From a virus (taxonomy: Duplodnaviria > Heunggongvirae > Uroviricota > Caudoviricetes), in the IMG/VR virus record IMGVR_UViG_2630968342_000003: a DNA stretch of 4,834 nt; one strand, given 5' to 3'. Below, piece by piece: positions 1-4,834 of the stretch. Every line of letters starts with the position of its first letter. Within the stretch, counting starts at the first letter, position 1. The notes below the pieces were generated by a model that searched no databases, was not told the origin of the DNA, and saw only the letters and a list, made by a program, of their open reading frames with translations. The translations under genes were made by a program, and so were the position numbers.

Positions 1-331
1 TCTCGATGGAAGTTATTGAGTGATCTCCTTTCATGAAAATACGCAAGCGGTTACGAACGGAATCTTCATGCCAGCGGGTATCGCTGTAACGGGTCAGCTG
101 GCGATACTTGTCTCCTGCATAGCTGAATGACGTCACCAGCCCCAACGTGTCCGTAAACTCATAACGGTATTTCACGTTAATCCCGTTCAGATCATCACTG
201 CCGGGAACGTTCGTCGAGGCATGAAGATACCCCGCGCTCAGCGTGGACTGATGTTCAGACGCCCATGCAGGCGCACCGGATACGGCCAGACAAATGGCTG
301 CGGACAAAATTGCTGCACAAACTTTACGCAT
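1..331 (-). CDS. lom: Lom-family outer membrane protein (Ail/Lom/PagC/OmpX 8-strand beta-barrel family); ATG at 331..329, ORF runs off the window at position 1. Frame departs from recalled lambda Lom in the last ~45 nt.
   Basis: Minus-strand translation from the ATG at 331..329 gives MRKVCAAILSAAICLAVSGAPAWASEHQSTLSAGYLHASTNVPGSDDLNGINVKYRYEFTDTLGLVTSFSYAGDKYRQLTRYSDTRWHEDSVRNR..., a near match to lambda Lom as I recall it, including the signal peptide ending AWA/SE. GAGG Shine-Dalgarno (plus strand CCTC 337..340) lies 5 nt upstream of the ATG. Position immediately downstream of J matches lambda gene order. After ...SVRNR the frame reads LRIFMKGDHSITSIE, which I do not recognise as Lom. Confidence 0.8.
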   Translation of the reverse strand, partial: MRKVCAAILSAAICLAVSGAPAWASEHQSTLSAGYLHASTNVPGSDDLNGINVKYRYEFTDTLGLVTSFSYAGDKYRQLTRYSDTRWHEDSVRNRLRIFMKGDHSITSIE

Positions 332-351
332 AATTACCTCTCGCTTTTCTG

Positions 352-380
352 CAATAAAAAAGGCGTCATTCCTGACGCCA
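352..380 (-). terminator. Rho-independent terminator downstream of J (tJ-like): 7-bp GC-rich stem, 4-nt loop, then a T-run on the minus strand
   Basis: Plus strand 356..379 reads AAAAAA GGCGTCA TTCC TGACGCC. On the minus strand this is GGCGTCA-GGAA-TGACGCC followed by TTTTTTATTGC, starting about 22 nt after the J stop codon. Seen directly in the sequence. Confidence 0.6.
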
Positions 381-401
381 TTTATTGGGGTTATAAATAT
401 T

Positions 402-3400
402 TCAACGAATACTGATGCCGGAAGCAGCTTTTTTGGTCACAATCACCGTACAGTCGGTGATATTGCCTGCCCCCTGATTGCCTTTCTGGAAAATCTTAAA
501 CTCCAGAGTGACGCTACCACCACCACTAGGCATATCAATAACTGCACTGTAACTACCGGGAATGGCCCCTTTAGTTTCTCTGGATGCGATTAATACGCCG
601 TTTTTGCGAACTTCAAAACCATAACCCGTGTATCGCGTGCCTCCTGGGTTATTTCCGCTCCCCGGATCGTCATACGCTATACCGTTAAAAATAATGGGCG
701 GAATAATAATCTGGCGGTCAAAGTTATGATCATCGCTGATGGTGACTGTAACCGTACCGTTTGGTGTTTCCGTGTTACCCCACGTACCGACTTTTTTCGG
801 GAAGGCTTTTGATACAGCTTTAACGAAATCCCCTCTGACCTGGGTCGCCTCCAGCATGCCCTTAATCGTACAGTTCTGGTTAATCGTGACATTGTTGAGC
901 GTTCCTGAGTTCGCATTCACACTGCCACTGATATCCGCATTTTTAGCGGTCAGCTTTCCGTCTGATGTCAGGGAAAATACCGGAGGACTGCCACCGCTGG
1001 TAATGGTGGGGGCCGTCAGGCGCTTCAGGAACACGTCGTTCATGAATATCTGGTTGCCCTGCGCCACAAACATCGGCGTTTCATTCCCGTTTGCCGGGTC
1101 AATAAACGCGATACGGTTAGCGGCAACCAGAAACTGGCTCAGCTTGCCTTCCTCCGTGTCCTCCATGCTGAGGCCAATACCCGCGACATAATGTTTGCCG
1201 TCTTTGGTCTGCTCAATTTTGACGCCCCACATGGCATTCCATTTATCGTTAGCGTCCTTCCACTCTTTCGAAAACTCATCCAGTCTGCTGGCGTTATCCT
1301 CCGTCAGATCGACTTTTTCCAGCAGCTCCTTGCCGAGATGAGATTCGGTTATCTTGCCTTTGAAAAAATCCAGGTAACCTTCCGCATCATCGCTCGCCCG
1401 ACCGACGGCTTCCACGAATGCCGATTTGCCAACGGTGTTCACACTGCGGATATAAAAGTAATAATCATGGCCCGGTTTGATATTGATACTGGCGGCTATC
1501 CAGTACAGCGCCGTACCAAGATAGCGGGCTGTGGTTTCAACCTGCCTGATATCGGTAATCCGCTTTTCCGAGAACCAGAACTCAAACTGTACCGTCGGGT
1601 CATAAACGGCAAGATGCGGCGTGGCGGTTATCTGAAAATAGCCCGGCGTCAGCTCAATCCTCGACGGTGCTGCCGGTGCGGCAATCCGGAACGATACCGA
1701 CGCCGGATCGCCCTGCTGCCCCCACGCATTTACCGCCCGGACTGTCAGCCTGTAGTTCCCCAGCGCCAGTTGCGTGAAGCGGTATGTGGTTTCCGTCGTC
1801 CGGGCCGTGCTGACCAGCCGCTCACTGCCGTCATCCGCTGTTACGGTCAGACGGAGCAGGAAGCTCACGCCCTTCACCACCTTCGGCGTGTCCCAGCGCG
1901 CCAGCACCTGATATTCCCCGCTGTCTGCGGTGACTTCGGCGGTCAGGTGCTGCACCGCTGGCGGCGTGACACCATTCACCGTGCCGCTCTGGTCGCCGTC
2001 AAAGTGCGCCCCGTTATCCACGATGGCTTCTTTTTCCGGTACATGCTGCACGGCAGTGATGGCATACGTGCCGTCATCGTTCTCACGGATACTCACACAG
2101 CGGAACAGGCGCTGACGCAACGTCGGCAACTTCAGCCCCCACACACTGTATTCTGCAACGCCGTCAGGAACCCGGTTCACTTTCACCTTAAGTCCGTCGG
2201 TGACGGACTGAACCTCCACGCTGACCGGATTACCACTTCCGTCAACCAGGCTTATCAGCGTGGTACCGGAGGATGGCAGCGTGATTTCACGGTCGAGCGT
2301 CAGCGTCCGGGTCTGGCTGGTCACCGCCAGCACGCGACCACCGGTGCTGATACCGGCATAGTCATCATCGCAGATTTCAATGACATCGCCCGGTACATGG
2401 CGAAGCCCTTCAGCACCCACGCTGAAATCCACGGTCTGCGTTTCCAGCAGTTCTGTTTTAATCAGCCACAGCCCGGCGCGATGTGCCTGCCCCCGGCTGG
2501 TACAGCCAAAGGCATCCATCTTCGTGACATTACGACCGTAACGGGCAATGGCCTGCGTATCTTCAACAAGCTCTGTCGCCGTCTCCCAGCCGTTGTTCGG
2601 GTCAATCCAGTTCACCTCAACGGCATTATGGCGGTCCTTCAGGGCGCTGAAACTGTAGCGGAACGGCGCGCCATCATCCGGCATCACCACATTACTGCGG
2701 TTATAGGTCCACACCTTATCCGACGGCCGGTCCTGCACGAACGTCAGCGTCTGCCCGTTCCATACCGGCATACAGCGCATCGCCGAGCAGAAATCACTGA
2801 GCACATCCCACGCCTTACGCTGTGTGGTCAGCCAGGCATTACAGGTGATGCGCGGCTCCGTACCGCCAAAGCCGTCCGGCACCGACTGGTCGCAATTCTG
2901 GCCGATGACATACAGCGCCCATTTATCCACATCTGCCGCACCAAGACGTTTCCCCATGCCGTAGCGCGGGTGGGTCAGCATATCCCACAGACACCAGGCC
3001 ATGTTGTTGCTGTATGCCGGTTTTAACGTTCCGTCCCAGATACCGCTGTATTGCCGCGTCTGCGGGTTATAATTCGACGGCACCTGCAGAATGCGCCCGC
3101 GAAGATGATAATTACGGCTCACCTGCTGGCTGCCGAACTGCTCCGAATCCACCTGCACGCCGACCAGTGCCGTGTTCGGGTAGCACTGTTTCACATCGAT
3201 GATTTCGGTGTATGACGACCAGAGCGTTTTGTTCTGCAGCTGGTCTGTGGTGCTGTCCGGCGTCATCCTGCGCATCCGGATATTAAACGGGCGCGGCGGC
3301 AGGTTATCCACCACCACCGAGGCCAGATACTGCGAGGTGGTTTTGCCTTTAATGGTGATGTCTTTTTCCGTCACCCAGCCACCATTACGCTGTATCTGAA

Positions 3401-3815
3401 CCAGCAGGCGGACTTCCGACGGATTCCGGTCACCCTTTGAGGTGGTTTCCACCAGTGCCTGCACACCGAAGGTAAAGCGCAGACGGTCGATGTTTGCCGA
3501 CGTGATGGTCCGGGTAATCGGCGTGTCGTACTTCACTTCCGTACCCAGCACCGTCTCGGAGCCGGAGGATTCAAATCCCTCCGGCGGTGTCTGCTCCTGC
3601 TCACCTGCCCGGAAAACCACCGTGACACCGGAGATATTGGTATTCCCCTCACTGTCCAGCACCGGCGTACTGTTCAGCAGCACACTTTTTAATCCGTCCA
3701 CCGGACCTTCAACCGGCCCTTCACTGATGGCGTCTATCACGCTCAGCATCTGGGATGATTTCAGGTTGTCCTTCGCTTCGCGCGGGGTATGCCCCTTACT
3801 GCTGCCTTTACCCAT
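402..3815 (-). CDS. J: Tail tip / central tail fibre host-specificity protein J, 1137 aa; lambda-like N-terminal and central regions, diverged C-terminal receptor-binding region
   Basis: Single 1137-aa ORF. The N-terminus [20 protein letters not shown]... and the bulk of the protein are near-identical to lambda gpJ (1132 aa) as recalled. GGAG (plus strand CTCC 3824..3827) lies 8 nt upstream of the ATG at 3815..3813. Stop is TGA at 404..402. The last ~165 residues align with lambda only in patches ([15 protein letters not shown] vs IVDMPAGRGNVILTF; [14 protein letters not shown] vs VMVIKKQALGISVV). Confidence 0.95.
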
Positions 3816-3830
3816 TCGTCATGCTCCATA

Positions 3831-3857
3831 AACGATAAAACCGCCCGGAGGCGGTTT
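3831..3857 (-). promoter_or_regulatory. Intercistronic stem-loop with T-tract between I and J; possible partial terminator, attenuator or RNA-processing/stability element
   Basis: Plus strand 3838..3857 is AAACCGCC-CGGA-GGCGGTTT, a perfect 8-bp stem with 4-nt loop. On the minus strand it is followed by TTTTATCGTTTATGGAGCATGACGA and then the J ATG. It sits inside the 60-nt I-J gap. Confidence 0.35.
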
Positions 3858-3875
3858 CACATAAAACATTTTGCA

Positions 3876-4547
3876 TCAGCGACCAATCACCACAACCTGC
3901 CCACCATCCCCTTCGTCTGCCGTGCTGATTTCCTGAGAAACCACGCGTGACCCCACGCGCATTTCACCGTACAGAACCGGCAGAACATTGCCCTGGGCAA
4001 CCATGTTATCCAGTGAGGAGAAATAGGTGTTCTGTTTGCCGTTATCCGTTGTCTGTGTACGGGGAGTTCTGGCTTTCGGTGCCAGCATCTGCGCCACACC
4101 ACCGAGCACCATACTGGCACCGAGAGAAAACAGGATGCCGGTCATACCACCGGCCCCAATGGCTGCCCCCCATGCTGCAAGGGTGGCTCCGGCGGTAAAG
4201 AATGATCCGGCAATGGCGGCAGCCCCCAGGACAATCTGGAATACGCCACCTGACTTGGCCCCGGCGACTCTGGGAACAATATGAATCACAGCGCCATCAG
4301 GCAGAGTCTCATGTAACTGCGCCGTTAACCCGGACGTGCTGACGTCCCGCCCGGCAATCCGTACCTGATACCAGCCGTCGCTCAGTTTCTGACGAAACGC
4401 CGGGAGCTGTGTGGCCAGTGCGCGGATGGCTTCAGCCCCCGTTTTCACACGAAGGTCGATGCGGCGGCCAAATCGTTGCAAATCCCCGTAAAGGCAGATG
4501 CGCGCCATGCCCGGTGACGCCAGAGGGAGTGTGTGCGTCGCTGCCAT
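3876..4547 (-). CDS. I: Tail assembly protein I, 223 aa
   Basis: Translation MAATHTLPLASPGMARICLYGDLQRFGRRIDLRVKTGAEAIRALATQLP...GGQVVVIGR matches lambda gpI (223 aa) as recalled. Contains a C-terminal Gly/Ala-rich hydrophobic segment. Length and position between K and J match lambda. Confidence 0.9.
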   Translation of the reverse strand: MAATHTLPLASPGMARICLYGDLQRFGRRIDLRVKTGAEAIRALATQLPAFRQKLSDGWYQVRIAGRDVSTSGLTAQLHETLPDGAVIHIVPRVAGAKSGGVFQIVLGAAAIAGSFFTAGATLAAWGAAIGAGGMTGILFSLGASMVLGGVAQMLAPKARTPRTQTTDNGKQNTYFSSLDNMVAQGNVLPVLYGEMRVGSRVVSQEISTADEGDGGQVVVIGR

Positions 4548-4834
4548 TTGTCGGTATACCTCTCTCGTTTGCTCAGTTGTTCAGGAATATGGTGCAGCAG
4601 CTCGCCATCACCACAGTAAATGGCGGCATGATTCGGCACCGATGAACCAAAACAGCACAGCAGCACATCGCCCGGTTGTGCTGATGACAACGGCACCTGA
4701 TACAGCCCTGTGGCCTCCAGATTATCCAGATAGAGATTCTGGCCGTTACGCCACCAGTCATCCTCACGATGAAAGTCCGGCATCTCAATCCCCGCCAGAT
4801 GATAAGCATCCCGGAACAGCGTGTAACAGTCCGT
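4445..4834 (-). CDS. K: Tail assembly protein K, C-terminal part (NlpC/P60-type domain); 5' end lies beyond the window
   Basis: The minus-strand frame is open from the window edge (…TDCYTLFRDAYHLAGIE-MPDFHREDDWW…) to the stop at 4445. The Met at 4783 reported by the ORF track is internal. A Cys/His-containing NlpC/P60-like region (…DCYTLF… / …VPNHAAIYCGDGELLHH…) is consistent with lambda gpK. It overlaps the I start by ~100 nt in a different frame, as in lambda. Confidence 0.85.
   Translation of the reverse strand, partial: TDCYTLFRDAYHLAGIEMPDFHREDDWWRNGQNLYLDNLEATGLYQVPLSSAQPGDVLLCCFGSSVPNHAAIYCGDGELLHHIPEQLSKRERYTDKWQRRTHSLWRHRAWRASAFTGICNDLAAASTFV

Follow-up and report, generated by a model that had tools for sequence, protein, structure and literature searches.

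A lambda/434-type central tail fibre J carrying a 434-type receptor-binding domain, with OmpC as its predicted receptor, in an Escherichia coli prophage

RESULTS

The J protein joins a lambda/434-type body to a 434-type receptor-binding domain

The virus record IMGVR_UViG_2630968342_000003 (Caudoviricetes) contributes a 4834-nt stretch of DNA, hereafter the window, which is the K-I-J-lom tail-tip region of a lambdoid E. coli prophage and contains an intact open reading frame (ORF) of gene J (402..3815, minus strand) for the 1137-aa central tail fibre or tip attachment protein, annotated as gpJ in the source genome. This J is a natural mosaic, in which a lambda/434-type body (residues 1–972; 900..3815, minus strand), comprising hub domains, FNIII/Ig domains, a helical shaft and a beta-prism stalk, is joined to a receptor-binding domain (RBD; residues 973–1137 plus the stop codon; 402..899, minus strand) of the phage 434 allele class, i.e. 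the classical ‘h434 host range allele’ (PMC9119081). The sequence comparisons below support a swap of the RBD cassette through recombination within the conserved linker at codons ∼957–978, and a recombination-borne 434-type RBD with OmpC as its receptor is a highly probable identity for the module.

J was aligned with lambda gpJ (NC_001416, by MAFFT), phage 434 J (OL657226) and the J of Stx2a_WGPS6 (AP012539). Against lambda gpJ, 945 of the 972 body residues were identical (97.2%), but only 65 of 171 alignment columns (38%) were so over residues 973–1137, where five insertions or deletions (indels; +2, +6, +1, +2 and −6 residues) were also found; the contrast between body and RBD gave a Fisher exact p of 3.3e-77 and a maximum chi-square of 972. 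An earlier interpretation made from the letters of the window alone (the sequence-only reading) had claimed a near-identity to lambda over ∼970 residues followed by ∼165 residues of low identity with only short motif islands in common, and the alignment agrees with it on each count: the last part is not as conserved as the rest, and the islands are NVTI, NCTI, GD.VKA, AFP, DDH.FDRQI, DMP.G.G.V.L.F and KK.A.GIS. At the codon level, the 165 RBD codons differ from lambda by 38 synonymous and 89 non-synonymous changes, and the 972 body codons by 84 synonymous and 27 non-synonymous ones.

The switch between the two parts is sharp. By maximum chi-square on a codon-aware DNA alignment, the breakpoint against lambda was placed after J nt 2933 (codon 978, window nt 883), with 95.7% DNA identity to its left and 47.5% to its right; in the per-window identity comparison that had been proposed as a check, with windows of 60 nt, DNA identity fell from 0.97 to 0.67 across window nt 959 to 899 and ranged from 0.32 to 0.65 afterwards. 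The corresponding breakpoint against Stx2a_WGPS6 was at window nt 945 (codon 957), and the final mismatch to that phage lies at nt 902, next to the point, ∼nt 906, from which the mismatches to lambda become dense. These two breakpoints, at codons 957 and 978, delimit a recombination junction zone (883..945, minus strand) in the conserved linker, running into LNNVTI, and put it at the linker near lambda aa 964–973, as in the 434-type allele. The boundary had been estimated at window nt ∼900 from a motif that begins with SGT and lies at residues 970–986, an estimate accurate to within a few codons.

Over its whole length, J shares 98.6% amino acid identity with phage 434 J and 88% with lambda J. 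Its body is identical to that of 434 at 960 of 972 residues, and to that of Stx2a_WGPS6 in 714 of 1000 alignment columns (∼71% protein and 75% DNA identity). Six gpJ-specific Pfam families, namely FNIII-A_GpJ, Phage-tail_3, Ig_J, Ig_J_second, Phage_Tail_Tip and Ig_GpJ_C, matched in the expected order and all above their gathering cut-offs, and this multi-domain architecture, along with the K-I-J-lom synteny, places the protein in the lambda-like central tail fibre J family. The full head and tail cluster that surrounds J in the source genome supports the lambdoid synteny as well.

The same RBD cassette is carried on divergent J bodies

The 165-aa RBD is identical to that of phage 434 J at 161 residues (97.6%), the four substitutions being N1019D, I1108V, Q1110H and G1115R, and to that of Stx2a_WGPS6 at all 165. 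At the DNA level, window positions 901..381 (521 nt), which span the RBD, the stop codon and ∼20 nt beyond, have zero mismatches to Stx2a_WGPS6, and identical or 99%-identical cassettes were also found in Stx2_112808, Stx2_12E129, ASU11, mEp460_ev081 and phage 2851. Because 521 nt are free of mismatches while the J bodies are only ∼71% identical, the comparison indicates a recent exchange of the cassette between otherwise divergent lambdoid lineages, here a commensal prophage and an O157:H7 Stx2a phage. The J genes of the Stx2 phages (Stx2a_WGPS6, with a J of 1164 aa, Stx2_112808 and 2851) and of ASU11 share the cassette at 99–100% DNA identity to ∼20 nt past the stop but have bodies only ∼71% identical to that of the window, which shows that its movement is not tied to that of the remaining J.

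Across 243 phage records, tblastn with only the RBD as query returned 74 at ≥90% identity, 169 at <60% and none in between, and this bimodal distribution argues for a modular exchange. In a pairwise matrix, at least six RBD classes, 42–56% identical to each other, were distinguished, represented by 434 together with the window, lambda, A8 and the database proteins P0052, P0056/P0061 and P0058; the window RBD shows 42–49% identity to the other five classes versus 97.6% to 434, which places it in the 434-type class. It falls outside the lambda-type LamB-binding class (38% identity, with indels in predicted loops) and outside the A8-type OmpC-binding class (PDB 9wcb; 47% identity), although it shares the fold of both. 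The 434-class RBDs have 23 polymorphic sites, and the four residues at which the window differs from 434 are all common polymorphisms in the class. When a cassette was counted as present over ≥80% of its length, the 434-type cassette was detected in 2,092 of 5,426 complete E. coli genomes (∼39%).

A C-terminus that diverged in place from a lambda-type RBD, by rapid point mutation under diversifying selection and with no exchange of modules, would also give low identity to lambda. It could draw on the experimental evolution of lambda and phi21, in which point mutations in the J C-terminus arise quickly and change receptor use (PMC11336670), and on the excess of non-synonymous over synonymous changes in the RBD (89 versus 38). 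However, the boundary is only a few codons wide, and beyond it DNA identity drops to ∼47%, synonymous sites are saturated and there are five indels; in the adjoining body, only 111 of the 972 codons differ from those of lambda, and the diverged block extends into the terminator and lom. Together with the absence of intermediate RBD identities among phages, the same cassette on a 71%-identical J body effectively refutes divergence without recombination, which we regard as scarcely credible. A cassette exchange is thus preferred, since synonymous sites are saturated against lambda, the junction is shared and the same cassette occurs on divergent J backbones; the sequence-only reading had proposed such a modular exchange of the RBD, and the saturated synonymous sites, the shared cassette and the bimodal identities bear it out.

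Several database proteins (P0050, P0055, P0057, P0059 and P0006) were observed to fuse the last ∼60–100 aa of the RBD to unrelated N-termini, including Lom, a tail-fibre N-terminal domain, tail protein I and HTH domains. They are probably frameshifted or misassembled prophage remnants and only conceivably genuine rearrangements at the RBD.

The RBD is modelled with the fold of solved gpJ receptor-binding domains

Residues 1001–1136 match Pfam PF12421 Ig_GpJ_C (‘Tip attachment protein J, C-terminal receptor binding domain’) with E = 6e-25. A phmmer search of the PDB with the RBD alone retrieved 9wca (A8 gpJ) at E = 3.6e-34 and lambda gpJ as 8xcj at E = 7.5e-25, the two lambda gpJ entries 8xcj and 8iyk both standing at E about 1e-24. 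An AlphaFold2 model, computed from an 11-sequence alignment from which the chimeric or fragmentary database proteins P0055, P0057 and P0059 had been dropped beforehand, was all-beta with a mean pLDDT of 74.7 and a pTM of 0.71, and of low confidence at the first 22 and the last 5 residues. With this model, the top four Foldseek matches in the PDB were 9wcb, 8xck, 8xcj and 9wca, each at E about 1e-13 and TM 0.70–0.72, and the next matches were at E 5e-4 or weaker. Of these structures, 9wcb is the ‘Open state of A8 gpJ 713 central tail fiber with OmpC G17 from E. coli EDL933’, 8xck is the closed lambda fibre and 8xcj is the lambda gpJ713-LamB complex. The RBD is therefore predicted to be an Ig-like beta-sandwich like the solved gpJ RBDs.

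All five indels relative to lambda are located in predicted loops of the model. PMC11101478 describes an Ig-like lambda RBD in which four loops at the bottom, L1–L4, insert into the LamB trimer, and the positions of the indels are consistent with such loops making the receptor contacts.

OmpC is the predicted receptor of the 434-type RBD

When the J of lambda is replaced by the 434 gene, the phage binds OmpC, the receptor of 434 (PMC3509688, citing Fuerst & Bingham 1978), and the redirection of lambda to OmpC by 434 J is also stated in PMC12502783 and PMC11101478. The RBDs of lambda, 434 and phi330 have been compared, with pairwise identities of 35–40%, and the 434 trimer has been modelled docking onto trimeric OmpC (PMC12502783). 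Lambda aa 964 is a natural junction for gpJ chimeras, and natural gpJ C-termini targeting OmpC are known (PMC11338833). From its near-identity to the 434 RBD, we infer that the window allele, four substitutions away, also binds OmpC; some doubt is left because of these four substitutions and the known OmpC-allele selectivity of gpJ variants. The sequence-only reading had expected either a receptor other than that of lambda or a variant of LamB: the former is supported by the 434 allele and by OmpC in the literature, and the latter is unlikely.

In the mechanism that we propose, the J trimer would present three RBD copies at the tip of the central fibre, and their distal loops would insert into the extracellular face of trimeric OmpC, by analogy to the lambda gpJ-LamB and A8 gpJ-OmpC complexes. 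Binding to OmpC would then trigger the opening of the RBD and a rearrangement of the tail tip, as observed for lambda on LamB and for A8 on OmpC. In lambdoid phages generally, the RBD behaves as a cassette that is exchanged by homologous recombination within the strongly conserved linker just upstream.

Several points weigh against an OmpC-binding J at work in this prophage. The structural model is of moderate confidence and was built as a monomer. The gpJ chimeras A8 and 1A2 discriminate among OmpC alleles (PMC11338833), and by analogy ‘OmpC’ as the receptor may be restricted to some OmpC variants; moreover, a single substitution in J can change which receptor lambda or phi21 uses (PMC11336670), and the allele does differ from 434 at the four positions given above. 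Finally, the prophage has an annotated frameshift in gpU, a lom split by an insertion sequence (IS) and truncated side tail fibre (stf) genes, and this copy of J may never be assembled into infectious particles.

Could the RBD be 434-like and yet recognize LamB, OmpF or another receptor, or only OmpC alleles absent from K-12? Besides the four differences from 434, this possibility can point to the finding that phi21 and lambda gain OmpC or OmpF use with as few as one to four substitutions in J (PMC11336670), and, as for a restriction to certain alleles, to the delivery by 1A2 to EDL933 OmpC and not to MG1655 OmpC (PMC11338833), as well as to the exact window allele being that of O157:H7 Stx2 phages. 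Yet the RBD is 97.6% identical to an experimentally characterised one, its four variant residues are common within the 434 class, and phages with 98–99% identical RBDs have been isolated on K-12 strains (e.g. mEp332, PhiR34_1 on MG1655), so that we consider it very unlikely and keep OmpC as the predicted receptor. A literature search on the study behind the PhiR.. records of ECOR phages found no paper on J receptor typing.

The J gene is intact in a prophage with disrupted neighbouring genes

Three E. coli isolates from humans, the commensals G1/2, G6/7 and G8, carry the full-length window on their chromosomes at 100% identity, and its positions 46–4834 are 96–97% identical to phage 434, lambda h434 imm21, 2B8, PhiR29_1 and other lambdoid phages. 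In strain G1/2, the prophage occupies 2605388–2650221 of NZ_CP060083 at the Qin prophage locus, between cspF/cspB/essD/rrrQ and tfaQ/pinQ/ydfK, and, unlike the Qin of K-12, it still has all of the lambda-like head and tail genes. Considering its lesions, the prophage is probably decaying and at an intermediate stage.

Whether J is by now an inert remnant of a cryptic prophage, its RBD having no current function except as recombination stock for lambdoid phages, is given an even chance. The Qin locus, the gpU frameshift, the lom split by an ISEc12 that is itself frameshifted and the truncated side tail fibre genes speak for it, but the J ORF is intact over 1137 codons and the differences of its body from 434 are mostly synonymous (70 versus 12). 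Neither lom nor stf (for stf, PMC12617516) is required for lambda to form plaques. Since J is intact and differs from 434 mainly at synonymous sites, purifying selection appears to have acted on it until recently, as the codon comparison suggests. At issue here is only what the gene does today, and an inert J is compatible with the 434-type, recombination-borne identity of its RBD.

The non-lambda block does not end with J. The sequence-only reading was right in recognizing a diverged module but not in ending it at the J C-terminus, as the block runs 3′ past the J stop codon through the intergenic terminator and lom (window 46–401), and its 3′ boundary lies outside the window because lom is of the 434/Stx type as well. 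Between J and lom, a terminator scan detected a terminator-like intrinsic hairpin followed by a T-run (362..379, minus strand; GGCGTCAGGAATGACGCC TTTTTTATT). Its stem-loop, GGCGTCA-GGAA-TGACGCC, differs from that of 434, GGCACCA-GAAA-TGGTGCC, but the changes are paired and the stem is preserved; 434 has an annotated terminator at the homologous position, and the lambda sequence there is unrelated.

The lom fragment (46..331, minus strand) encodes the N-terminal part of an Ail/Lom outer-membrane protein, i.e. the first 95 codons before truncation by the IS, with a match to positions 1–95 of the 199 in the Pfam Ail_Lom profile (E = 1e-53); the annotation of the source genome calls it a partial pseudogene. 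When aligned with the lom genes of 434, Stx phages and lambda, it proved to be of the 434/Stx type, with strong divergence and indels relative to the lambda gene. Its similarity to lom genes that have no interruption stops in every case at window nt ∼45/46 (...CGTAACCGCT / TGCGTATTTTCATG...). The remaining positions, 1..45 (strand not assigned), are the end of ISEc12, a member of the IS21 family that has inserted in lom, and for this reason all phage matches stop at nt 46. In the source genome, the lom fragment is directly followed by a gene with a Mu-transposase domain and by the istB of ISEc12, with the remainder of lom beyond the IS; the transposase and istB are both annotated as frameshifted (24810–27232 of the prophage segment).

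On the other side of J, still on the minus strand as are all the features found from the ORF list, Pfam and the terminator scan, lie the genes I and K. Gene I (3876..4547, minus strand) is a 223-aa ORF for a tail tip assembly protein (Pfam Lambda_tail_I, E = 1e-28), annotated as tail assembly protein in related phages and in the source genome. Its start is ambiguous: the lambda-like start yields the 223 aa and a ∼100-nt overlap with K as in lambda, and PGAP starts the gene later in the source genome, at window 4448, with a 190-aa product. The 3′ part of gene K (4445..4834, minus strand), cut by the window edge, encodes a C40/NlpC-P60 peptidase of tail tip assembly (Pfam NLPC_P60, E = 1.4e-12; C40 family peptidase in the source genome). 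At the I/J boundary, the first ∼132 nt of J (window 3684–3815) are only 90% identical in DNA to 434 versus 97.5% for the rest of J, and this lower likeness to 434 suggests a small additional mosaic patch there.

Opposite-strand ORFs within 402–900 (e.g. 294..593 and 739..1191, plus strand) were considered as genes and rejected, being antisense to the conserved, annotated J and having nothing annotated in their place in any related record.

DISCUSSION

The host-range difference between lambda and 434 has been mapped to J since the 1950s–70s. A 434-type RBD swap on J is already known and nothing here departs from published knowledge: the sequenced 434 genome, the lambda h434 hybrids and solved complexes of gpJ RBDs with porins are in place, and the same junction is already in use to retarget lambda particles to OmpC.

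Among the known systems, the phage 434 J, i.e. the lambda ‘h434’ allele (OL657226, OM418627), is the closest, with the same length of 1137 aa, the same junction with a lambda-like body, the same position of the downstream terminator and the same lom type; the window departs from it by the four RBD and 12 body substitutions, by compensatory changes in the terminator stem and by the IS in lom. Lambda gpJ (P03749; PDB 8xcj/8xck/8iyk) shares the body, the domain architecture and the RBD fold, but its RBD is only 38–42% identical, with indels in five predicted loops, and its loops L1–L4 bind LamB (PMC11101478); with the 434 allele, the phage is redirected to OmpC instead. The A8 gpJ chimera in complex with EDL933 OmpC (PDB 9wca/9wcb) is the top Foldseek match and alike in fold, but its RBD belongs to another allele class. 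Like the window J, the A8 and 1A2 gpJ of Brödel et al. 2024 (PMC11338833) have a natural non-lambda C-terminus on a lambda body at the aa 964 linker, and they target OmpC, the receptor predicted here.

A suitable annotation label for this J is ‘434-type RBD, predicted OmpC-specific’. A further possibility, which is tentative and on the unlikely side, is that the sub-allele shared with the O157:H7 Stx2 phages has an OmpC-allele specificity unlike that of classical 434. If such tuning were true, the 23 polymorphic sites of the 434 class would be traces of an arms race, fought at fine scale, with the surface loops of OmpC, and the intact J genes in decaying Qin-type prophages would be a reservoir of cassettes for incoming lambdoid phages. 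More broadly, one RBD cassette circulates widely, in ∼39% of complete E. coli genomes and on J backbones that are only 71% identical, and the data on its circulation are useful background when the host range of a lambdoid or Stx phage is to be predicted from its sequence.

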